Below are positions 1 through 12,924 of a stretch of DNA of 64,000 nucleotides, piece by piece. The translations under genes were made by a program, and so were the position numbers. The notes under the pieces were generated by a model. It did no database searches and was not told where the DNA came from. It saw only the letters and a list, made by a program, of their open reading frames with translations. Origin of the DNA: an uncultured Planctomycetota bacterium. GTDB taxonomy: Bacteria > Planctomycetota > Planctomycetia > Isosphaerales > Isosphaeraceae. The stretch spans positions 6,784,001 to 6,848,000 of the forward strand of contig CAVTTN010000002.1 in NCBI GenBank assembly GCA_963737655.1, written 5' to 3'. Each line of letters opens with the position of its first letter. The first letter of the stretch is position 1.

Positions 1-187
1 CGGGGCGTCGCCAATGACCGGATCACGACCTCTCGGGCCAGGCTAACCTACGGGCAGGGAGCACCAAGGTGGAGACGGCCGGGAGGCCCGCGCCACACTC
101 AGGCTACGCCGCGCCGGGTCGGCGGGCAAGTCGTCCCCGACCCCCGTTCACGCCCCGTCGGGAGCGGACGAAGGCCGCAGGATGGTT
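1..187. mobile_element. 380-bp non-autonomous IS110-derived element, copy 1 (cut by window edge)
   Basis: Matches the right part of the copies at 2655, 5521 and 7159; ends GGATGGTT directly before the AAC of attC1. Confidence 0.9.
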
Positions 188-282
188 AACCTCGCGCTGC
201 AGCGGACCCGGCCCGCCGCGGCGATTTTTCTGCTATCATGGCCCTTCTCGGCGGGCCGGTCCGCTGAGCTTTGGCGTTAGGC
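184..282 (+). repeat. attC site 1
   Basis: GGTTAAC...GCTGCAGC...GCTGAGC...GTTAGGC with an internal inverted repeat. Confidence 0.9.
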
Positions 283-299
283 GGCTCGGAGGTCTGCAA

Positions 300-566
300 G
301 TGCCACGGCTTCGGTTCACTCGTGCAGAAGCTGAGGCCGAAGCCATACGATTGGCCACAGAGTTCGTCGCCGCGATGCCTGGCACTGAGTCCGCCCGATG
401 CATCGGTGCCTCCGCCGACCCCTTCACGTCGAGAAGTACAAGCAGCAAGCATCCCGTCATCTGGGCCGTTGGTTTCGTCTTTCACCCACCCGAAGTCGTG
501 ATGGACGGCGGCGAGTTGTTTGTCGGCGTTAACATCGAAACCAAGGCCGTAACAGCACATGAATAA
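300..566 (+). CDS. Cassette hypothetical protein (88 aa)
   Basis: GTG start after GGAGG just downstream of attC1; stop shortly before the next R'' box. Confidence 0.7.
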   Translation: MPRLRFTRAEAEAEAIRLATEFVAAMPGTESARCIGASADPFTSRSTSSKHPVIWAVGFVFHPPEVVMDGGELFVGVNIETKAVTAHE

Positions 567-743
567 CCGCCGTGCGACCGCCTCCCCGTGAACTCTTCGC
601 GCCGGCGGTTCGGCATCGGTTGATACTATGTGGGCATGATCATCGATCGGCCCGCATCCCCCCCGGCCCCCGCGACGACGGGGACGGCCCGATCCGGCTC
701 GGCGGGGCTTGCGGTCGGGCGCCCCGCCTCCGACCCGTCGCCC

Positions 744-2096
744 TCACGACGGCGGCGACGGCGGCGACTTCGCCACCAGCTCGTAGCCCAGCGACCTCGC
801 CTTGCGCCGCAGCGACCGCTCCTGCTTCGCGCGCACCTCGGCCTCGTACTCCGCCAGCGACCTCGACACGTACTCCTCGCCGTGCCTGAGCATCCGGTAC
901 ACCAGCCGCGACAGCTTGTGCGCCGTCGCCGTGATCGCCCCCCGGCCGCCGATCCGGCCCTTGATCCGCCGGTAGAACTGGCCCGTCGCCGTCGCCGTCC
1001 GGCCCGCCGCCTGCGCCGCCATCCGCAGCGCCTGACCCACCCGGTTCTTGCCCTTGCGGGGCGTGCGACGCCGCTCGGTCTTGTTGCTCCGGTCGGTCCG
1101 CGGGCAGAGGCCCAGCCAGCTGGCGAAGTGCTTCTCGCTCGGGAACCGCCCCACGTCGCCGCCGAGCTCGGCCAGGATCACCGTCGCCGTCGTCGCGTCG
1201 ATCCCCTCGATGGCCGTCAGGTCCACGCCGATCGCCCGGGCCAGCTTGGCCGGGGCGTCGAACCGCACGTCGTTGGCCTTGCGGCCGCGCTTGCGGGGCC
1301 TCGCCGCGATCGGCCGGCCTTCGGAGCGGTCGGGCAGGCGGTCCAGCTCCTCGGCGATCCGGGCGTCGCACTCGTCGACCTGGCGGTGGAGGTAGTGGTA
1401 CAGGTCGGACGCCTGCCTCAGGGCGAACAGGTGCTCGGGCCGCCAGGTGCCCTCCAGGGCCCGGGCGATCTCCGCCTCGTCCCGGGCGCACCGCTCGTGC
1501 CGCAGCGCGGCCAGCTTCGTGGCGTCCCGCTCGCCGGCGAGGATCGCGGCGATGATCGCCGTGCCGGTGACGCCCGTGATGCTGCTGACGACCTCGGTCA
1601 GCTTCACATTCATCTGCTCCAAAGCCTTCTGCATGTGCTGGACGTGGTGCGAGGCGTACCGCACGAGCATCTGCCGCTGCCGCCAGTAGCCGCGCAGGGC
1701 CAGGACGGCCCCGGGCGGGCGGAAGGACGGGCGGAGCAGGCCGCACGAGTGGAGGCGCTGGAGCCACTGGCAGTCGAGCCGGTCGGTCTTGGGCCGGGCG
1801 CCGCAGTGGCTGGCCTGGCTCGGCTCGATGAGGAAGACCTCGAAGCCGCGCGATTCGAGCAGCTCGAACAGGGGGATCCAGTAGACGCCGGTGGACTCCA
1901 GGACCACCGAGGTGACGCCCTCGGCCCGGAACCAATCGGCCAGGGCGTGGAGGTCGGCCGAGCAGGCGCCGAAGGTGCGGACCCGTCCGGGCCCGACGCA
2001 GGCGACGTGGTTGTCGGAGTGGACGTCGACGGCGGCGGCGTGGGGGTGGACGACCGGCAGGGACGCGTCGGGATCGGGGGGCGTGCGGCGACTCAT
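744..2096 (-). CDS. IS110-family DEDD transposase/recombinase (450 aa)
   Basis: AAVDVH, LESTGVYW and KTDRLD (DEDD RuvC-like) motifs plus C-terminal LTAIEGID...FASWLGLCP..RS motif. Confidence 0.95.
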   Translation of the reverse strand: MSRRTPPDPDASLPVVHPHAAAVDVHSDNHVACVGPGRVRTFGACSADLHALADWFRAEGVTSVVLESTGVYWIPLFELLESRGFEVFLIEPSQASHCGARPKTDRLDCQWLQRLHSCGLLRPSFRPPGAVLALRGYWRQRQMLVRYASHHVQHMQKALEQMNVKLTEVVSSITGVTGTAIIAAILAGERDATKLAALRHERCARDEAEIARALEGTWRPEHLFALRQASDLYHYLHRQVDECDARIAEELDRLPDRSEGRPIAARPRKRGRKANDVRFDAPAKLARAIGVDLTAIEGIDATTATVILAELGGDVGRFPSEKHFASWLGLCPRTDRSNKTERRRTPRKGKNRVGQALRMAAQAAGRTATATGQFYRRIKGRIGGRGAITATAHKLSRLVYRMLRHGEEYVSRSLAEYEAEVRAKQERSLRRKARSLGYELVAKSPPSPPS

Positions 2097-2130
2097 GGCG
2101 AGGGCTCCGGCGGGTGGGGGGCCAAGCCGT

Positions 2131-2295
2131 CGCGGGCCGAGAGGGGGTCCGGGGACGAGGTAGTCTCCCCGACGGGAACGTCGCGGGGCCGTGTTGACAC
2201 GGCGCCGCGGGTCACCAATGATGGGGCCACGGCCTCTCGGGCCAAGCTAACCTGCGGGCGGCGAGCACCAGGGAGATGACGGCCGGGAGGCCCGC
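2131..2295. ncRNA. Predicted bridge/seek RNA region of the IS110 element (boundaries and strand approximate)
   Basis: Non-coding region upstream of the transposase with conserved stems and two parallel modules carrying CTCCCCG (element end) and CTAACCT (attC target). Confidence 0.65.
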
Positions 2296-2363
2296 GGCGG
2301 CGACGCCGATCGTACCGCGCCCCGGTTCACGTCCGTCGGGGAGCGGTCGCAGGCCGCGCGGAG

Positions 2364-2463
2364 AGTTAACCTTGCGCTGCAGCGGACCCGGCCCGCCGCG
2401 GCGGTTTCTGGTAACATCAAGCCTTCACTCGGCGGGCCGGTCCGCTGAGCTTGGTCGTTAGGC
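2364..2463 (+). repeat. attC site 2
   Basis: AGTTAAC...GTTAGGC, same family. Confidence 0.9.
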
Positions 2464-2494
2464 GGCTCGGCAACCGGTCGAGCCGGGGAGGGGG

Positions 2495-2662
2495 ATGCGA
2501 TGCCCGTTCGGCCGTTCGCGCCTCGTCGCCGTGCCGGTCGTCGCGTCGCCGTGCCGGTCGTCGCGTCGCCGTCGGCCGCGCCCCGCGTCGTCGCCGCCCG
2601 GGGTGGCGCGCGTGGTCGCCGCCGGCGGTCGTGCCCCGCGCGGTCGCGCCGCCTCTTCGTGA
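2495..2662 (+). pseudogene. Small, probably decayed cassette ORF with a 20-bp tandem duplication
   Basis: ATG after a G-rich RBS; GTCGCCGTGCCGGTCGTCGC x2 at 2525-2564; stop TGA supplied by the inserted element. Confidence 0.35.
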
Positions 2663-3034
2663 ACTCTTTGGCTGGGAACGGCCATCGACGCGCGACACTA
2701 CCCCAACCCCAGGCTTTGTGGCCGGGCAGCGGCGAGGTCCGGGTAGCAAACCGACGGATTCAAGAGCGGCGGACGAGGCGCGGGCCGAGAGGGGAGTCGG
2801 TTACGTTTGCAGTCTCTTCGACGGGAACATCCCCGCGAGTCGGCTCGCGGGGCGTCGCCAATGACCGGATCACGACCTCTCGGGCCAGGCTAACCTACGG
2901 GCAGGGAGCACCAAGGTGGAGACGGCCGGGAGGCCCGCGCCACACTCAGGCTACGCCGCGCCGGGTCGGCGGGCAAGTCGTCCCCGACCCCCGTTCACGC
3001 CCCGTCGGGAGCGGACGAAGGCCGCAGGATGGTT
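2655..3034. mobile_element. 380-bp non-autonomous IS110-derived element, copy 2
   Basis: CTTCGTGAACTC...GGATGGTT between CGCCT and AACCT; homologous to the IS non-coding region; no transposase. Confidence 0.9.
2778..2940. ncRNA. Predicted bridge/seek RNA region in the 380-bp element (shared by the other copies)
   Basis: Modules CTCTTCG-ACGGGA...TCGCCA (2814) and CTAACCT-ACGGGC...GCACCA (2890); hairpin CCCCGCGAG/CTCGCGGGG. Confidence 0.6.
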
Positions 3035-3129
3035 AACCTCGCGCTGCAGCGGACCCCACCCGCCGCATCGGTTTCTGGTAGATTCAAGGTCGCTCGTGCG
3101 GGTGGGTCCGCTGAGCTTGGCCGTTAGGC
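3031..3129 (+). repeat. attC site 3
   Basis: GGTTAAC...GTTAGGC. Confidence 0.9.
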
Positions 3130-3360
3130 GGCTCAGGAGTCGAAGCCTTCGGTCGTGCTCGTCGTCGGCCTCGCCGGTCGCGCCTCGGCTCGACGACGCC
3201 ATCGGTCGGGCCCCTGGAGTCGGCCTCGGCGGTGGTGCGCGTCGTCGCCCTCGCCGGCCGCGCCCCCGAGGTCGGGCCCGTCGGCCGGCGCCCCCTTGCC
3301 AACGCCGTCGGTCCGTGCCAGGATCGTCGGTGTCGGCGCGTGGGGCGTCGCCGGGGCGCC

Positions 3361-3460
3361 GCCTAACCCGGCGCTGCAGCGGACCCGGCCCGCGGTCGAC
3401 GATCACTCTCCTCTCAATCTCGCCGGGCGCGGGCCGGTCCGCTGAGCTTTGTCGTTAGGC
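3361..3460 (+). repeat. attC site 4 (uninterrupted; closes a ~230-bp cassette with no convincing ORF)
   Basis: GCCTAAC...GTTAGGC. Confidence 0.92.
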
Positions 3461-3485
3461 GTATTAGGTCGATCGGAGGCTCTGG

Positions 3486-3896
3486 ATGCGCAGTAGAGTC
3501 CGCTATGTCAGTGGTTTGCTATCGCTGTCCGTGCTGATCTTTACCTCGTGCAGCCCGGAGCGACCGGCGGGCAGCGAGGCGGACGCGTGGCCATCCGACC
3601 AAGAGATCCTCGCCTACCTCGATGGCAAGACGATTTTCGAGCCCACGCCTGCCTCATCGGAGAAGGGAGGTAGTGTACCCCCGAAATCCTTCTTGCTGAA
3701 GGCAGGCAACATTTCCTCCTTGGAAGTGAAGAAGTCGGGGGTTGCTGTCTCGGGCGAGCCTTGGACGACGCCGATCCATTTCATCCTCGACGAGGGGGGG
3801 CGTAAATATGCCGTTGATGCCAGCGTCGATCACCGGAAAGTCGATAATAAACGGGCCTTCTTCGGGCTCAAGGCCGAGCGCATCGCTGAGCAGTGA
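3486..3896 (+). CDS. Cassette-encoded putative lipoprotein
   Basis: GGAGG RBS, basic/hydrophobic leader and lipobox-like FTSC. Confidence 0.8.
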   Translation: MRSRVRYVSGLLSLSVLIFTSCSPERPAGSEADAWPSDQEILAYLDGKTIFEPTPASSEKGGSVPPKSFLLKAGNISSLEVKKSGVAVSGEPWTTPIHFILDEGGRKYAVDASVDHRKVDNKRAFFGLKAERIAEQ

Positions 3897-3897
3897 C

Positions 3898-3998
3898 GCC
3901 TAACCTCGCGCTGCAGCGGACCCCGGCCACGGGCCGCGCTCCCTCTTCCCTCAAGCTCACTGGTCCGTGGCCGGGTCCGCTGAGCTTTGGCGTTAGGC
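3898..3998 (+). repeat. attC site 5 (uninterrupted)
   Basis: GCCTAAC...GTTAGGC. Confidence 0.92.
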
Positions 3999-4014
3999 GG
4001 CAGAGGAGATTGGG

Positions 4015-4545
4015 ATGACCACCTCACCCCGTGACCGCATGCGGATGATCGTCGGCGATATCACGACACTAGCCGTCGACGCCGTCGTCACGGCCGCCAA
4101 TGAGTCCCTCCTCGGCGGCGGGGGAGTCGATGGCGCCATCCACCGAGCCGCCGGCCCCGGGTTGCTCGACGAGTGCCGCACCCTGGGGATCTGCAACGAG
4201 GGCGAGGCGAAGATCAGCGGCGCCTATCGCCTGCCCGCCAAATACATCATCCATACCGTCGGGCCGGTCTGGGAGGGCGGCCACTACGATGAGGTCGGCA
4301 CCTTGCGGCGGTGCTACAGGGCCTGCCTGGAATTGGCGGAGGGGCGCGGCGTCGAGTCGATCGCCTTCCCATGCGTCGCCACGGGCGTCTACGAGTTCCC
4401 GAAGGACCTGGCCTGCGAGGTCGCCGTCGACGCCGTGCGCGAATGGCTGTCGGACCACGACCTCCCGAAGCAGGTGGTCTTCTGCTGCTTCGAGGAGTCG
4501 GATGCCGCGCTGTACCGTGACCGCCTCTCCGCGGCCATCGCCTAA
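4015..4545 (+). CDS. Macro domain protein (YmdB-like O-acetyl-ADP-ribose deacetylase)
   Basis: GDIT, AANESLLGGGGVDGAIHRAAG, IIHTVGP and SIAFPCVATGVY motifs; stop TAA inside R''. Confidence 0.93.
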   Translation: MTTSPRDRMRMIVGDITTLAVDAVVTAANESLLGGGGVDGAIHRAAGPGLLDECRTLGICNEGEAKISGAYRLPAKYIIHTVGPVWEGGHYDEVGTLRRCYRACLELAEGRGVESIAFPCVATGVYEFPKDLACEVAVDAVREWLSDHDLPKQVVFCCFEESDAALYRDRLSAAIA

Positions 4546-4638
4546 CCTGGCGCTGCAGCGGACCCGGCCCGCCGCGGTAGTTTCCGTGCTATCATCGGTC
4601 TGCTCGGCGGGCCGGTCCGCTGAGCTTGGTCGTTAGGC
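4540..4638 (+). repeat. attC site 6 (uninterrupted)
   Basis: GCCTAAC...GTTAGGC. Confidence 0.92.
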
Positions 4639-4661
4639 TCCGAAGTCGGAAGGTGAGTGCG

Positions 4662-5528
4662 ATGCAACAAGCTTCACAACCAAACGCGATGCAGCAACCC
4701 ATAAAGGAGTTGCTCAAGGCGATAGCCGAACAGTCGAATCCGAAGCAACTCAGGGAAGCCTTATTCGAAAAGCGGTTGCTGGCGCGGGCCTTCGCCATCT
4801 GCCCGGATGCGGAACAAGCCGCGAAGTTAACGGACATCGTGTTCAAGCGACTCAGCGACTTGGATAAACAAGTTGAATTGGCACGGGCTGAATGGGACGA
4901 ATTCAAGAACAAGGCATGCACAGACTGGAAGAGGGTCCGAGCGGAGATCGAACACGAGAATCTGCTCATCAATCACCGTTTGGGATGGTTATTTACCTCA
5001 CAGATTTTCCTGCTCGGAGGTTTTGCGGCGGTCTTTCAGGCTTCTCTCAAGGAGAACCTACTCACCAGTTCGCTCCCAGTCCAGGTTGTATTATTAGCGA
5101 TATCAGTCGTCGCCGTTTCAATTTGTGCATTTGTGACTGCTTCTGTCGATGCAGCTCATAAACAGATTGAATTCTTGGAGAATTGGTGGTTCGCTCACTA
5201 CCTGAGCAAAAAACTGAAAATGATGGATATCTTCTGCGTCGAAAAATTGACAGATCACCCTCCAATCAACGGTATTTTTGATGAATGGTTGTACACTATC
5301 CTAAGTACGAAATGGATGCCAGTACCGATCGCTCTAGGCTGGCTCGCCTTGATGTCTGCAGTATTCTTTGAGAAGATTTTGAAGATCGAGCAGCCTGTTG
5401 TCCCAACGGTTGCCTCGACCACCGTCGTGTTTGGGCTGGGTGTCGGGCTCTTCTATTTTGCGACGTTGCGGCGCAAGCGTCCGAATCGCAAAGTTGGTTC
5501 CTGGAAAGAGCCCGCCGCCTCTTCGTGA
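4662..5528 (+). CDS. Cassette membrane protein (4 predicted TM), possibly RipA-like family
   Basis: Visibly lower GC; IEHENLLINHRLGWLFTSQ motif followed by hydrophobic helices; family call from recall only. Confidence 0.7.
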   Translation: MQQASQPNAMQQPIKELLKAIAEQSNPKQLREALFEKRLLARAFAICPDAEQAAKLTDIVFKRLSDLDKQVELARAEWDEFKNKACTDWKRVRAEIEHENLLINHRLGWLFTSQIFLLGGFAAVFQASLKENLLTSSLPVQVVLLAISVVAVSICAFVTASVDAAHKQIEFLENWWFAHYLSKKLKMMDIFCVEKLTDHPPINGIFDEWLYTILSTKWMPVPIALGWLALMSAVFFEKILKIEQPVVPTVASTTVVFGLGVGLFYFATLRRKRPNRKVGSWKEPAASS

Positions 5529-5900
5529 ACTCTTTGGCTGGGAACGGCCATCGACGCGCGACACTACCCCAACCCCAGGCTTTGTGGCCGGGCAGCGGCG
5601 AGGTCCGGGTAGCAAACCGACGGATTCAAGAGCGGCGGACGAGGCGCGGGCCGAGAGGGGAGTCGGTTACGCTTGCAGTCTCTTCGACGGGAACATCCCC
5701 GCGAGTCGGCTCGCGGGGCGTCGCCAATGACCGGATCACGACCTCTCGGGCCAGGCTAACCTACGGGCAGGGAGCACCAAGGTGGAGACGGCCGGGAGGC
5801 CCGCGCCACACTCAGGCTACGCCGCGCCGGGTCGGCGGGCAAGTCGTCCCCGACCCCCGTTCACGCCCCGTCGGGAGCGGACGAAGGCCGCAGGATGGTT
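5521..5900. mobile_element. 380-bp non-autonomous IS110-derived element, copy 3
   Basis: One visible difference from copy 2 (TTACGCTTGC vs TTACGTTTGC); same insertion point. Confidence 0.9.
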
Positions 5901-5997
5901 AACCTCGCGCTGCAGCGGACCCCGGCCACGGGTTACGTTTTCTCTTCTCCCAAGCTCACCGGTCCGTGGCCGGGTCCGCTGAGCTTGGTCGTTAGGC
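5897..5997 (+). repeat. attC site 7
   Basis: GGTTAAC...GTTAGGC. Confidence 0.9.
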
Positions 5998-6021
5998 GGC
6001 TTTCCCCGGTGAGGCCGACTC

Positions 6022-6420
6022 GTGCGCATCAGCATCCCACGCCTCCCGGTCGCGCTCGTCATCCGAGCGGATCGGCGGCCCCGACGGCCGATCAAGCCGA
6101 GGTTCACCCTTCGTGGCATGATGCTTGCCGTGCTCGTCGTCGGGCTGGTGCTCGCGCTGTCGCTCCACGCGGCGAGGTTGCAACGGGCTGGCAACGACCA
6201 TGCGGCGCGAGCGGTCCTGCTCGCCCCGGGCGCCGGCACGATGCCTCCGGTCGTGGGCTGGCACAACGCGAGGGCGAACGCCCTCTTCGCGGCCGCCTGG
6301 CGCTGGCACATGGCGGTCACCACGCTCGTTGTCAGCTCGGCCGCCTTGGGGTGTATCGCGGCCATCGGCCGGTGCGTCGCTTCTGCGCCCCGGCCCTACG
6401 GTGGGTCGGAAGGCGCCTGA
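6022..6420 (+). CDS. Cassette membrane protein with RFTLRGMM leader motif
   Basis: ORF fills the cassette; stop TGA in R''; two hydrophobic segments; start uncertain. Confidence 0.65.
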   Translation: MRISIPRLPVALVIRADRRPRRPIKPRFTLRGMMLAVLVVGLVLALSLHAARLQRAGNDHAARAVLLAPGAGTMPPVVGWHNARANALFAAAWRWHMAVTTLVVSSAALGCIAAIGRCVASAPRPYGGSEGA

Positions 6421-6512
6421 CCTCGCGCTGCAGCGGACCCCGCACCGCCGCGGCGCTTTCTCTGCTACCATGTCGTTGTTCGGCGGTGCGGGTCCGCTCA
6501 GCTTGGGCGTTA
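6415..6512 (+). repeat. attC site 8 (R'' GCCTGAC; R' split by a MITE)
   Basis: GTTA at 6509-6512 continues as GGC at 6661 after the insertion. Confidence 0.85.
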
Positions 6513-6658
6513 TTGCCCTTCAGGTTGTCCGGTTCCGGACGATCCCCGGGTGGCCGGGGGCTCGTCCGCGAGACCCCGGTCCCGCGGGGTCGGCCGACCG
6601 GGGTCTCGCCGGCGAGCCCCCGGCCACCCGGACAGGAACCCAACAATCTGAAGGTCAA
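6513..6658. mobile_element. 146-bp palindromic MITE with TA target-site duplication
   Basis: TIR TTGCCCTTCAGGTTGT / ACAATCTGAAGGTCAA (14/16), internal perfect 19- and 13-bp stems, TA at 6511-6512 and 6659-6660. Confidence 0.8.
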
Positions 6659-6685
6659 TAGGCACACTCACACACGGCATCACGC

Positions 6686-7147
6686 ATGAGCACAGGAAAC
6701 ACAAAAGCCGTCAGAGATTCCGAGACGTGCTGGGAACTTGATGAAGAGTTCATGTTGTATGCCGCGACCATTCCAGACCCGCCGAAGGCGGGTGCGGCCA
6801 CGACGGTGAGGCTCACGCATCGGAGCTCCTGCGGCCCGTTCGACTTCGCTGAATTTTTCGTTCGTGTAGGAAACTCGGCCAAGTCGAACGCCCCGCGCGA
6901 TTCGGATTCGACGACAGATTGGATTCAGGCGCGATTGGTCGAGGAGTTGGTCACCGTCGCTGAGGAAGAGATGCATCGTTCAGAGGCGCAAGAGCCTTTC
7001 GATGACGAGACACTTTGGATCGGGACTTACGAGGCCGACTTAATCTTTCCCGTCGGGCAGAGTTCCATCGAGATCAAGATCGTCAGCCAAGAGCCAGAGA
7101 TGCTCGGGTCATTCGTGCTGACGGACTGGGAGGTGACGGTTGGATGA
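6686..7147 (+). CDS. Cassette hypothetical acidic protein (153 aa)
   Basis: ORF fills the cassette between attC8 and the next R''. Confidence 0.75.
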   Translation: MSTGNTKAVRDSETCWELDEEFMLYAATIPDPPKAGAATTVRLTHRSSCGPFDFAEFFVRVGNSAKSNAPRDSDSTTDWIQARLVEELVTVAEEEMHRSEAQEPFDDETLWIGTYEADLIFPVGQSSIEIKIVSQEPEMLGSFVLTDWEVTVG

Positions 7148-7158
7148 GCCGTGCGCCT

Positions 7159-7538
7159 CTTCGTGAACTCTTTGGCTGGGAACGGCCATCGACGCGCGAC
7201 ACTACCCCAACCCCAGGCTTTGTGGCCGGGCAGCGGCGAGGTCCGGGTAGCAAACCGACGGATTCAAGAGCGGCGGACGAGGCGCGGGCCGAGAGGGGAG
7301 TCGGTTACGCTTGCAGTCTCTTCGACGGGAACATCCCCGCGAGTCGGCTCGCGGGGCGTCGCCAATGACCGGATCACGACCTCTCGGGCCAGGCTAACCT
7401 ACGGGCAGGGAGCACCAAGGTGGAGACGGCCGGGAGGCCCGCGCCACACTCAGGCTACGCCGCGCCGGGTCGGCGGGCAAGTCGTCCCCGACCCCCGTTC
7501 ACGCCCCGTCGGGAGCGGACGAAGGCCGCAGGATGGTT
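7159..7538. mobile_element. 380-bp non-autonomous IS110-derived element, copy 4
   Basis: Appears identical to copy 3; same insertion point. Confidence 0.9.
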
Positions 7539-7634
7539 AACCTCGCGCTGCAGCGGACCCCACACCGCCGCGGCGCTTTTTCTGCTATCATGCCTGTCTC
7601 GGCGGTGCGGGTCCGCTGAGCTTGGTCGTTAGGC
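7535..7634 (+). repeat. attC site 9
   Basis: GGTTAAC...GTTAGGC. Confidence 0.9.
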
Positions 7635-7644
7635 GGCTCTCCCT

Positions 7645-7953
7645 TTGGGCGTCGAGGATCATACGTTCTCTGTGCGAATCGTCTCCATCGAGCGACTCCG
7701 CCTGCGGAATGGGTCGTCGCTGCTCCTCCTTGGCCTCGACATGACGTACCTTCAAGCGGCGCGGTCTGGTTGTCCGGGTGCCAAGGCACGCGTCGTATCC
7801 GGCGATGCCGTCACGCCAGTCCGGGGCACCCTGGCCTTTCAGCAACCACTCGACAGCCTCGCGACCGTGAGCGTATCTTCACCTGAGTCGATCATCGTCG
7901 CTGTCGGCGACACGTTCGAGTTCGAGCGAGCCGACCCCGCCGCCTCCCCGTGA
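7645..7953 (+). CDS. Cassette hypothetical protein (~100 aa)
   Basis: ORF fills the cassette; in frame with the former R'' TAA; start uncertain. Confidence 0.55.
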   Translation: MGVEDHTFSVRIVSIERLRLRNGSSLLLLGLDMTYLQAARSGCPGAKARVVSGDAVTPVRGTLAFQQPLDSLATVSVSSPESIIVAVGDTFEFERADPAASP

Positions 7954-8593
7954 ACTCTTCGCGCCGGCGGTTCGGCATCGGTTGATACTATGTGGGCGTG
8001 ATCATCGATCGGCCCGCATCCCCCCCGGCCCCCGCGACGACGGGGACGGCCCGATCCGGCTCGGCGGGGCTTGCGGTCGGGCGCCCCGCCTCCGACCCGT
8101 CGCCCTCACGACGGCGGCGACGGCGGCGACTTCGCCACCAGCTCGTAGCCCAGCGACCTCGCCTTGCGCCGCAGCGAACGCTCCTGCTTCCGCCTCACCT
8201 CCGCCTCGTACTCCGCCAGCGACCTCGACACGTACTCCTCGCCGTGCCTGAGCAGCCGGTACACCAGCCGCGACAGCTTGTGCGCCGTCGCCGTGATCGC
8301 CCCGCGGCCGCCGATCCGGCCCTTGATCCGCCGGGGGGTCAAAAAGGGGACGGGGGGTCAAAAAGGGGACGGAGCGAATAAATTCAGCTTTTTGCATTTT
8401 GCCGCGTCTCATCCAGGCCGAACTTATTCGCTCCGTCCCCTTTTCGGCCCCAAGCTAACCTGCGGGCGGCGAGCACCAGGGAAGGGACGGCCGGGAGGCT
8501 CGCGACGGCGTGCCCCAGCGTATCGCGCCCGGTGGTCGGGGCCACCCCCGGTTCACGTCCGTCGGGGAGCGGTCGGAGACGGCGCGGAGAGTT
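7946..8593 (-). mobile_element. Internally deleted IS110 copy (transposase 3' remnant plus both ends)
   Basis: 7946-8333 nearly identical to 584-971; 8445-8593 is a diverged version of the IS right end; transposase C-terminal remnant at 8106-8333. Confidence 0.88.
8332..8444. repeat. REP-like palindromic unit at the IS deletion junction
   Basis: 19-bp tandem CGGGGGGTCAAAAAGGGGA x2 and perfect 21-bp IR AAAAGGGGACGGAGCGAATAA (8361-8381 / 8424-8444). Confidence 0.85.
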
Positions 8594-8689
8594 AACCTGG
8601 CGCGGCAGCGGACCCCGCACCACCGCGACGCCTCTTGTGTTATCATGGCCCACTCGGCGGAGCGGGTCCGCTGAGCTTTGGTATCAGGC
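8590..8689 (+). repeat. attC site 10 (degenerate R' ATCAGGC)
   Basis: AGTTAAC, L boxes and stem conserved; GTT mutated. Confidence 0.8.
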
Positions 8690-8715
8690 GGCTCGCACTT
8701 CCGAGGGGCACACCG

Positions 8716-9066
8716 ATGACCTTGCCTGGTCGCCTCCGCCCTCGTTGGACCATCGGGCGCTGCATGATCGGCGTCGCGGTCTCAGCCCTTGCGCTCTCCG
8801 GGCCGTTGCAATTCCTCCTCGTGGCCCTGACTGTCTCCTTCATGCTCCTCATGAGGCTCGGCTTTTCCTGGGTGAAGGCGCTGATGGCGGTCGAAGTGAT
8901 GGGCGCCATCGCGATCGCCCTCGGACTGCCGTTCTTCGTCACCGCCCTACGCTCCAATTGTGGCATGCCCGCGTCTGGGCCGACTAACCTCGCGGTGCGG
9001 GGGACCCGTCCCGCCGTTGTGCGTTCTCCGCTCTCATGGCGATCGCTCGGCGGGCCGGTCCGCTGA
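8716..9066 (+). CDS. Cassette membrane protein with RWTIGRCM leader; reads into attC11 (possibly frameshifted)
   Basis: GAGG RBS, hydrophobic segments; R'' TAA is out of frame. Confidence 0.55.
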   Translation: MTLPGRLRPRWTIGRCMIGVAVSALALSGPLQFLLVALTVSFMLLMRLGFSWVKALMAVEVMGAIAIALGLPFFVTALRSNCGMPASGPTNLAVRGTRPAVVRSPLSWRSLGGPVR

Positions 9067-9081
9067 GCGTTCGCGTTCGGC
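8982..9081 (+). repeat. attC site 11 (diverged)
   Basis: GACTAAC...GGTCCGCTGAGC...GTTCGGC. Confidence 0.8.
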
Positions 9082-9093
9082 CCCACGGAGGCG

Positions 9094-9432
9094 GTGATGC
9101 AGAAGGCTGGTGTCTGGCTTCTGACGATCATCGGCCTGGTCGGGCTGTTGGTGGCCCTCAGCTTCGAAGGGCATGGCGCGGGCGCCTCGACCCCTCAGCC
9201 GGGAGGACCGGTGCACGTGGCGCCGGTCGTCTGGCCAGTCGGCCTGCCCGATACCTGGCTGGAGTGGGAGAGGCCCGGATACCTGTTGGGGCAGGAGGGC
9301 CGCCCCCATGTCCACTTCGCCGGCGTGTATGTCCTCAGATGGTCGTTCGGAATCCTCGTCGCGAGCGCCTGCGCCCTGGGCTGCGCGTCGATTCTGGCTC
9401 GCCGCGGGCAATCCGGCCGGATCGGGGGCTAA
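9094..9432 (+). CDS. Cassette membrane protein (112 aa)
   Basis: GGAGG RBS, N- and C-terminal hydrophobic segments, stop in R''. Confidence 0.75.
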   Translation: MMQKAGVWLLTIIGLVGLLVALSFEGHGAGASTPQPGGPVHVAPVVWPVGLPDTWLEWERPGYLLGQEGRPHVHFAGVYVLRWSFGILVASACALGCASILARRGQSGRIGG

Positions 9433-9526
9433 CCTCGCGCTGCTGCGGACCCCGCACCGCCGCGCCCCCTTCTGCGAGATCTTCGTCGATTCGGCGGTGA
9501 GGGTCCGATGAGCTTTGTCGTTAGGC
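9427..9526 (+). repeat. attC site 12
   Basis: GGCTAAC...GTTAGGC. Confidence 0.88.
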
Positions 9527-9558
9527 GGCGGGGGGATCCACCCAGGGGGGAACCGAGG

Positions 9559-9966
9559 GTGGTGCGGCGATCCTGGCGGAGTTTGCGGGCGATTCTGGTC
9601 GCCATAGCCGTCGCGGCCGTCGCGATGAACGGCCTGCGTGAACTTCCCACGTTGCGAGATGGCTATCTCCTTCGGCAAGGGGCGGGTCGTGCCCGGCGTG
9701 ATGTCGAGTTGATCGGCGCGGCCTCGGGTCTCGATTCCGCCGCCGGTCGCAGGGCAGTGCTCAATGCCCATCAGGCCCAAGTCCGAGCCAATGCGTTCTG
9801 GCGGGAGAATCTTCCCGGACTGGCCGTCCTGGCGTGCGGCGCGGCGGCCGGTCTCCGGCTCCTGGGGCTGGCCTTCGGGGGCCTCTCGCCAGCCTTCGAC
9901 AGGCGAATCGGCGCGGTCGAACATCGCCGGAGTCCACCGCCTGACCTCTCGCGACCGCTCTCGTAA
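9559..9966 (+). CDS. Cassette membrane protein
   Basis: WRSLRAILVAIAV leader and a second hydrophobic segment; start uncertain. Confidence 0.55.
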   Translation: MVRRSWRSLRAILVAIAVAAVAMNGLRELPTLRDGYLLRQGAGRARRDVELIGAASGLDSAAGRRAVLNAHQAQVRANAFWRENLPGLAVLACGAAAGLRLLGLAFGGLSPAFDRRIGAVEHRRSPPPDLSRPLS

Positions 9967-10015
9967 AATCGAACGTCGCTCGGGCGGGTGGGTCCGCTGA
10001 GCCTGGTCGTTAGGC
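9939..10015 (+). repeat. attC site 13 (left arm deleted, 77 bp)
   Basis: GCCTGAC...GGGTCCGCTGAGC..GTTAGGC; GCTGCAGCGGACC arm missing. Confidence 0.7.
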
Positions 10016-10034
10016 GGCTCATCCGGAGGCGAAT

Positions 10035-10193
10035 ATGAATGTCGGCGGCGACCTGTCTGACTTCCTCCAAGGGGCACGTCAACGGCCCTCGATGTTCGTC
10101 CGGGACCGGTCCCTCGCCGAATTGGAGGGCATGTGCCGCGGCTACCATGTCGCCCTGCTCATTTCGGGGGATTTGTGCAAGAATTGTCAATGA
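10035..10193 (+). pseudogene. Truncated terminal cassette ORF ([22 protein letters not shown]...)
   Basis: GGAGG RBS and ATG right after attC13; ends after 52 codons with no closing attC. Confidence 0.4.
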
Positions 10194-10366
10194 ATCAAAT
10201 GACCCGGAACCGCACGACCAGGGCTGCGGTTCTCCCTTCCAACTCGGGGGGCCGGTCGCCGCTATCAGTAATCGGGGATTTGACTTGACGAACCTCGTTC
10301 CGCCGGATAGTGTACGGCAGTTCCCAATCCAGGGAACATTCGTACCCTGAAACGTGGAGGCGTGCG

Positions 10367-10885
10367 ATGATCCGACGGATCGCGGCGTTGGGGGCGGCGG
10401 TGGTCCTGGCGGCGGCGGCTCTGGGGGCCTGGGCGGGGGCGGAGGACGCCAAGGGCGTGGAGGCGAAGGCGGCGTTCGCGAAGCTCAAGGCCCTGGCCGG
10501 CGAGTGGACCGTGACGAGCGAGCACGGGGCCGGCAAGATCGTGTACAAGGTCACGGCCAACGGGACGACCGTGATGGAGACCGACTTCCCCGGGTCGGCT
10601 CATGAGATGATCACGATGTATCATCTCGATGGGTCGAACCTCAAGGCCACCCACTACTGCTCGGCCGGCAACCAGCCCCGGCTCAAGCTGGACCTGGCCG
10701 GGTCGACGCCCGACCGCCTGAAGTTCGACTTCGACGGCGGCTCGAACCTCGACGCCTCCAAAGATATGCACATCCACGGCTGTGAGATCGCGATCAAGGA
10801 CGCCAACCACGCCGAGGCGACCTGGCAGGGGTTCCTGGGCGGCAAGAAGGCCATGGACACGAAGTTCGTGATGTCCCGGCCGTGA
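10367..10885 (+). CDS. Secreted hypothetical protein
   Basis: Signal peptide, HEMITMYH/THYCSAGNQP motif, GC3-rich codons. Confidence 0.85.
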   Translation: MIRRIAALGAAVVLAAAALGAWAGAEDAKGVEAKAAFAKLKALAGEWTVTSEHGAGKIVYKVTANGTTVMETDFPGSAHEMITMYHLDGSNLKATHYCSAGNQPRLKLDLAGSTPDRLKFDFDGGSNLDASKDMHIHGCEIAIKDANHAEATWQGFLGGKKAMDTKFVMSRP

Positions 10886-11166
10886 ATCGGTGATCAGGCC
10901 CGGATCAACCGGGAGGGGGCGGCACGGGGAGCCGGGGGCGGGAGGCCGCGGCCTCGTCTTTCCGCCGGGGCGCCTCGTGCCGCGACGCTCCCTCTCGGGC
11001 CCGTTCCGGGCGCGGGCCGTGCTCGACCCGGCCGATGGTTTCGCCGAATCGGCGGACCCGGAGGCGTGGAAGGCGGATCGGTCGAGCTCCGAAGTCCCGA
11101 CGAGCGGGGATGGGCATGCCCTGGGAGGGCCCAGGGCATGCCTCGCGACTTCGGCGCGAACTGAAC

Positions 11167-12924
<1,758 letters not shown>

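Follow-up and report, generated by a model that had tools for sequence, protein, structure and literature searches.

The window, a stretch of 64,000 nucleotides, starts inside an integron cassette array. An IntI, scoring 475 bits against TIGR02249 (cut-off 265), is encoded about 6.5 kb ahead of position 584, and the attC sites therefore belong to a real integron. Comparison of the genome copies places a full IS110-family, ISPpu9-like element at 584–2367 (minus strand). Its gene (744–2096, minus strand) encodes a 450-aa DEDD recombinase/transposase, P0001, which matches PF01548, PF02371 and NF033542 (253 bits; cut-off 140). The protein has both a DEDD RuvC-like domain and a Tnp domain with the catalytic serine, the hallmark of the IS110 family in the broad sense, and residues D24, E67, D105, D108 and S337 are invariant in 11 aligned proteins, which confirms the 450-aa DEDD transposase of the preliminary description. 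The gene is flanked by 271 bp of non-coding sequence upstream (2097–2367) and 160 bp downstream (584–743), matching the approximately 270 and 160 bp reported before. The long upstream region is thus real, but it is no anomaly: IS110-group elements are described as normally carrying one (PMC11187229, PMC11208160), and so does ISPpu9.

This genome (G000) holds six full copies of the element, all with an intact reading frame, and two internally deleted copies. One of the latter (7946–8593, minus strand) retains both ends, has lost the donor loop and carries a REP-like repeat at the deletion. All three IS110 copies with internal deletions have such a REP-like inverted repeat, with tandemly stacked arms, where the deletion occurred (window 8335–8451; G000:C2:286711-286887; G000:C2:1680718-1680925), and similar purine-rich repeats break up mini-type ends (see below) in genome G002. 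In a sequencing-run comparison, no RNA run was listed for the sequence and the best sequence share was 0.06; contigs from four sets were only pieces of relatives and gave no sign of circles or expression.

A 380-bp mini-element without transposase sequence, in which no reading frame resembling a transposase was found, is present in 28 copies in G000. A copy search located four of them in the window, all on the minus strand: one in the attC R'' that follows the full element (2655–3034), two at 5521–5900 and 7159–7538, and one cut by the window start (1–187). Fifteen of the 28 copies are identical and three are 25–55 changes away. In the non-coding sequence upstream of the gene, IS and mini-element are about 75% alike, and the mini-element's ends are related to those of the IS without being the same. 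It accounts for 28 of 36 insertions, the intact IS for six, and no tandem pair occurs among the 36. The preliminary description mentions neither this transposase-less element nor the guide loops discussed below.

The short, B-box-like end of the IS (584–597, plus strand) consists of 5 nt read by the donor guide, followed by the left arm of a conserved repeat (about 587–593). The long, A-box-like end comprises 43 nt (2325–2367, plus strand), with the internal repeat arm at 2325–2331 and the donor core TT at 2366–2367. The 12-mers 591–602 and 2356–2367 pair at 11 of 12 positions, and the inverted repeat noted earlier is therefore present, 7 nt in from the 584 end. It is not a family feature, however, since the flush 12-nt repeat pairs at only 3–8 of 12 positions in 29 distinct relatives, and its interpretation as an IS1111-type subterminal repeat had to be abandoned for the same reason. 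In the mini-element, only 3 nt of it pair, as judged by eye. What is conserved instead is a covarying 5–7-bp repeat: in 28/29 relatives, a 5-nt arm located 38–49 nt in from the upstream end is perfectly complementary to positions 6–10 of the other end, in six sequence forms (swapped control, 0). The 7-nt extension lies at the 3' end of the gene, and the arrangement typical of IS1111 elements (subterminal repeats of 11–13 bp, set in by 7 bp on the left and by 3 bp on the right) is not found.

The IS splits an attC site. Positions 580–583 (plus strand) hold the left part of R'', GC plus the target core CT, and 2368–2463 (plus strand) hold the rest of the site in one piece, from the AAC triplet to R' (2457–2463). 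The junction reads GCCT/element/AACCT, with a single T common to both sides. All 36 insertions of IS and mini-element in G000 lie between CT and AACCT of attC R'' in one orientation; CT precedes the element in 36/36 and GCCT in 34/36 cases. One cassette is found both filled (mini-element at C2:1971064) and empty (window 3901), and the comparison reveals no added duplication. The earlier claims of attC R'' targeting and of no target duplication beyond a shared T are both borne out by these data.

The upstream region contains two similar internal loops, in which the core is joined to 5 nt that match the far end of the element itself in one loop and the target in the other. The predicted donor-binding loop (2145–2232, minus strand; boundaries inferred) has a donor guide at 2165–2171, corresponding to core and element end, and a handshake dinucleotide at 2163–2164. 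The predicted target-binding loop (2233–2295, minus strand) has a target guide at 2247–2253, corresponding to core and attC (CTAACCT), a handshake at 2245–2246 that corresponds to 2364–2365 of the element, and a weak second guide at about 2270–2277. On the gene strand, the target loop precedes the donor loop, as in IS621.

We gathered 162 related loci, of which 125 yielded both loops by the search pattern (37 did not), representing 58 distinct elements. Guides were counted with one row per distinct element, using those with enough flank, and compared with a swapped-pair control. The donor guide corresponds to the element's own end in 38/42 distinct elements (control mean 3.6, maximum 8), and the target guide to its own junction in 27/46 (control mean 0.4, maximum 4), with no exact match in the other 19. 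The dinucleotide beside the target guide equals the last two bases of the element before the core in 20/31 elements (control mean 7.1, maximum 15), the position at which the handshake guide of IS621 is reported to pair after top-strand exchange (PMC13626964). The handshake dinucleotide matches the left target in only 3/60 loci, and the second (left) guides match poorly. From this covariation, we predict that the upstream region encodes a bridge-RNA-like guide RNA for target and donor. The 44 different target guides among the 58 elements, together with the handshake covariation, support IS621 rules in a distant group, which seems to rely mostly on right-hand guides. A target-loop-like region was also seen at L084 (genome G021), with no transposase within the 1.3 kb viewed. 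Rfam gave no matches in window 1–12000, and the target-loop motif had no match in viral contigs.

To count attC sites, we removed the insertions in silico and searched the genome with a profile, which gave 88 attC hits; 31 filled sites served as seeds for the profile, a few of the non-matching hits are weak or partial, and one filled, truncated site is absent from the 88. Sites with the exact heptamer CTAACCT are filled in 35/53 cases, and the other attC hits in 0/35, including 13 with CTAACCC and six with CTGACCT. Many of the CTAACCC sites are copies of one cassette; counted by distinct upstream contexts, there are 34 filled, 17 matching empty and 27 non-matching sites. CTAACCT occurs 91 times in G000, and none of the 37 occurrences outside called attC sites is filled. 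The 7-nt guide therefore does not explain all of the specificity, and additional sequence, hairpin context or selection also matters for site choice. Several arrays contain a GC-rich cassette of about 331 bp (window 3130–3460, and copies), in some cases as tandem copies. The heptamer of its attC is CTAACCC, and no copy is filled, which may reflect escape from the guide.

The mini-element keeps both loops and both ends, and its donor guide and handshake differ from those of the IS and fit its own ends. In the copy at 2655–3034, the donor guide (2814–2820) corresponds to its own end and the handshake (2888–2889) to its own 3031–3032, with the target guide at 2890–2896. The possible pairing is asymmetric: the IS donor guide could read the mini-element end through two G-T wobbles, whereas the mini-element guide faces two A-C mismatches at the IS end, and the IS handshake fits the mini-element end less well than the mini-element's own. 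A mini-element at locus L001, 72% like the G000 copy, has changed end and donor guide together. Comparison with genome G003 shows that the RNA core keeps 147/165 positions and the 5' part 74/106. G003 (77% complete) carries mini-element copies in attC; no full transposase of the P0001 type was found in this 77% complete genome. Among 121 family genomes, the mini-end pattern occurs in G000, G002 and G003, with one unrelated match in G112. Since the mini-type end precedes a transposase fragment in G002, the mini-element probably derives from a sister IS whose ends were of this type. At L001, the diverged mini-element directly adjoins an IS, downstream of the transposase, as ssr9 does in ISPpu9, and its target loop has extra bases.

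Taken together, the mini-element resembles MITEPpu9 in being an RNA-carrying parasite, and it probably borrows the IS enzyme. Because its guides fit its own ends, both loops are kept and ssr9-only circles are reported to form with the ISPpu9 transposase (PMC12288879, PMC8450116), we infer that it supplies its own bridge RNA. Alternatively, it could be a passive MITE moved by the IS RNA, its own RNA being a leftover or a regulator, such as the antisense-RNA sponge proposed for Ssr9. Ssr9 is a sense RNA that, according to the ISPpu9 reports (PMC12288879, PMC8450116), pairs with Asr9 and reduces the translation of tnp by about 30%. The two-wobble pairing of the IS donor guide would permit passive movement, matched guides may have been inherited from the sister IS, and no promoter was found in the mini-element. 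We nevertheless consider this unlikely, given the joint change of end and guide between the G000 and L001 copies, the better fit of the mini-element's own handshake and an RNA core that is better preserved than any other internal part of the mini-element; the two roles are compatible with each other.

Two observations favour a sense RNA, i.e., one on the transposase strand. Guide CT stands opposite DNA TT 13 times and the reverse occurs once, and a sense RNA would pair the former by a G-T wobble. Also, the consensus fold of 58 sequences scores −84.5 for the sense and −78.3 for the antisense strand, with GU:AC ratios of 389:36 and 280:114, respectively; without GU, this fold is neutral (GU 10, AC 8). 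Ssr9, the counterpart in ISPpu9, is likewise a sense RNA. Single-sequence folds of the IS do not favour the sense strand (z of −1.5 sense and −2.6 antisense); for the mini-element, the values are −1.15 sense versus 0.34 antisense. A predicted sigma-70-like promoter (2194–2222, plus strand; 10/12) points out of the element towards the array, on the strand opposite to the predicted RNA. It was the single hit of a scan that gave 0.0 ± 0.2 in shuffles, and its −35 motif is kept in 9/10 close loci. It is reminiscent of Asr9 in ISPpu9, and transcription of cassettes further downstream might start from it as well. No promoter for the sense RNA was found in the mini-element or at either modelled circle junction. 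The working guide could be a seekRNA-like antisense transcript from this promoter that comprises only the target loop, in line with the conserved promoter, the antisense fold and the target-guide mismatches (6 versus 4, leaning against the sense strand). This seems highly improbable in view of the 13:1 core asymmetry, of a loop order and handshake position that match IS621 only on the sense strand, and of the mini-element, which lacks the promoter; furthermore, the antisense RNA of ISPpu9 is described as a translation activator (PMC12288879, PMC8450116).

Since the cut lies directly ahead of AAC and the last bases of the element are TT, a filled attC keeps the AAC/GTT triplet and 4–5 of 7 R-box pairs. 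Over the 31 filled sites with a called R', the R-box pairs fall from a mean of 6.8 to 4.7 of 7, and the bottom-strand fold is weaker by about 3 kcal/mol; in the minimum-energy fold of the filled site in the window, the R box is unpaired. Filled attC sites are thus probably weakened rather than destroyed, and the insertion position may spare the site. A cassette with its mini-element was found twice, beginning exactly at the crossover point; at both places, the cassette that comes next is the same. Furthermore, a 1272-bp mini-attC-gene-mini unit with boundaries at the element cores occurs in two arrays (G000:C2:1678866-1680137 and 1976602-1977873), with four differences and flanks that differ right at the cores. 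It would have spread by composite movement or homologous recombination, in either case without IntI boundaries.

Six near-identical attI-like leaders, each heading a separate cassette array, lie on G000:C2 near 283804, 1672896, 1969651, 4847034, 5876315 and 6778265. There are 13 integrase-family matches in G000, and the one checked, beside the last array, is IntI. A Macro-domain cassette lies at window 4015–4545; six other cassette reading frames were scanned and gave no Pfam match.

Phylogenetic analysis places P0001 in a well supported subclade (10 rows in one tree; 8 rows at 100/100 in a second tree, from which the frameshifted L098 was left out) with AACC-type guides. The right flank is attC in L109, L110, L112, L115, L098 and L111, and L113 lies in an array as judged by its left flank; the flanks of L001 and L002 are cut by contig ends, and the second G002 copy (L102) lies outside attC. 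Sister groups at 60–69% identity have other guides and other targets. Named relatives include many planctomycetes, and the two closest named contigs, both short, are labelled Actinomycetota. L076 (51% identity) seems to be a separate origin of attC targeting, judging by an array to its left and by the 15 nt that could be read to its right. L076 and L171 (51–53%) have AACA-type guides and flanks resembling attC R'', with L171 a candidate.

G000 also contains a second IS110-family element (412 aa, 34% identity to P0001) at L096:1552-3046 (G000:C2 about 4847050–4848545), with a partial copy at C2:286889–287611. It has a similar target loop and guides whose sense-strand pairing involves wobbles, and it is inserted at GTTAG/GCGG, the R'/attI crossover core of the other arm.

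The three IS1111 references in the tree, ISKpn4, an ISUnCu1-type protein (so named in PMC10232235) and IS4321, have long branches and fall on a branch separate from P0001 at 100/100. P0001 shares with the ISUnCu1-type protein only a C-terminal match of 131 columns (31%, E 4e-7) and with IS4321 20% identity. Both IS1111-attC loci analysed (L191, L192) insert 6 nt after the AAC of R'', 9 bp further in than the site used here. An origin of attC targeting independent of IS1111-attC, raised as a possibility in the preliminary description, is therefore supported by the tree, within three references, as well as by the insertion point. P0001 is also longer than the 330–350-aa proteins of the IS1111 clade, and its guide loops lie upstream of the gene, not in a long downstream non-coding region. 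The idea of a known IS1111-attC element that has merely reached a new host, which the general place and orientation (near the attC 5' end, antisense to the array) and the 7-nt extension beside the 11/12 repeat might suggest, can be dismissed, within the same three references, on the weak protein match, the separate branches and insertion points, the opposite side of the non-coding region and the unconserved repeat. A gene inverted inside IS1111-type ends was also considered and dropped; loop order and handshakes fit a sense RNA.

We conclude, with a probability of roughly 0.75, that this is a bridge recombinase element of the ISPpu9 type, with a target guide reprogrammed to the attC R'' of the host's integron arrays, accompanied by a non-autonomous element with its own bridge RNA. 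Site, orientation, guide covariation and copy numbers are read directly from the DNA, and expression of the RNA, its strand and movement are proposed on that basis. By analogy with IS621, an RNA with the target loop followed by the donor loop would be transcribed from the upstream region on the transposase strand, the recombinase would cut the strand opposite to the gene, 3' of the CT/TT core, and the circular element would be joined into GCCT/AACCT. The mini-element would most likely load the resident recombinase with its own RNA and direct its own insertion at the same site.

Independent attC targeting is supported, and the abundant RNA-carrying parasite is the stronger point; beyond site choice and covariation, the mechanism is a proposal. 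In the openly searchable literature (preprint supplements might list such elements), we found no report of a long-transposase IS110 element in attC R'' or of a MITE with self-matched bridge guides. A different recombinase clade appears to have acquired attC targeting anew through a change of guide, in the subclade described here and probably in L076, and the third element in G000, aimed at the R'/attI core, would be a further case of guide change. IS and mini-element form a natural matched pair of one enzyme, two RNAs, two donor ends and one target, and thus a test case for a non-autonomous element that hijacks a bridge recombinase with its own RNA, and for Ssr9 as such a guide. A more far-reaching idea, which we put forward tentatively and at somewhat less than even odds, is that the mini-element is a guide-RNA-only parasite whose RNA loads the IS recombinase and directs it to the ends of the mini-element itself, explaining 28 versus 6 copies. 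Both elements, sparing the attC triplet, may then ride in working cassettes, pairs of mini-elements could move whole cassettes between arrays without IntI, and Ssr9 of P. putida would likewise be a bridge RNA.

Among known systems, ISPpu9 of Pseudomonas putida KT2440 (PMC12288879, PMC8450116) is similar in its long transposase, with a motif set like that of P0001 as judged by eye from the printed sequence, and in the AG core on the gene strand (the upstream end here reads AA, a G-T wobble). The end boxes of 43 and about 16 nt (the A box of ISPpu9 has 43 bp), the upstream RNA region with an antisense promoter inside (here a motif only) and the lack of a junction promoter are further similarities. 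MITEPpu9 is, as reported, likewise a gene-less RNA module between IS-type ends in multiple copies. ISPpu9 targets REP, however, and the present element the integron attC R''; moreover, unlike the ssr9 module, the mini-element is free-standing and has its own end sequence with matching donor and handshake guides. The ISPpu9 reports, where they deal with Ssr9, treat it as a regulator and hitchhiker, not as a bridge RNA. IS621 (PMC11208160, PMC13626964; PDB 8WT6) shares the upstream RNA with target loop then donor loop, the handshake dinucleotides and the CT core with a cut 3' of the core (predicted here). Its protein is remote (E 1.5e-10), and in our element the CT strand is opposite the gene, TT is frequent as the donor core and specificity seems to come mostly from the right guides. 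The IS1111-attC elements (ISKpn4, ISPa21, ISPst6, ISUnCu1; PMC11187229, PMC3001079) are also described as inserting near the attC 5' end, antisense to the array, but have 347-aa proteins of another branch, a downstream RNA region and long subterminal repeats with 7/3 extensions, and they split R'' from the rest of attC, whereas the present element inserts just before AAC. Group IIC-attC introns, as described in PMC3001079, have also converged on attC and also carry an outward promoter, but they are retroelements with an unrelated mechanism.
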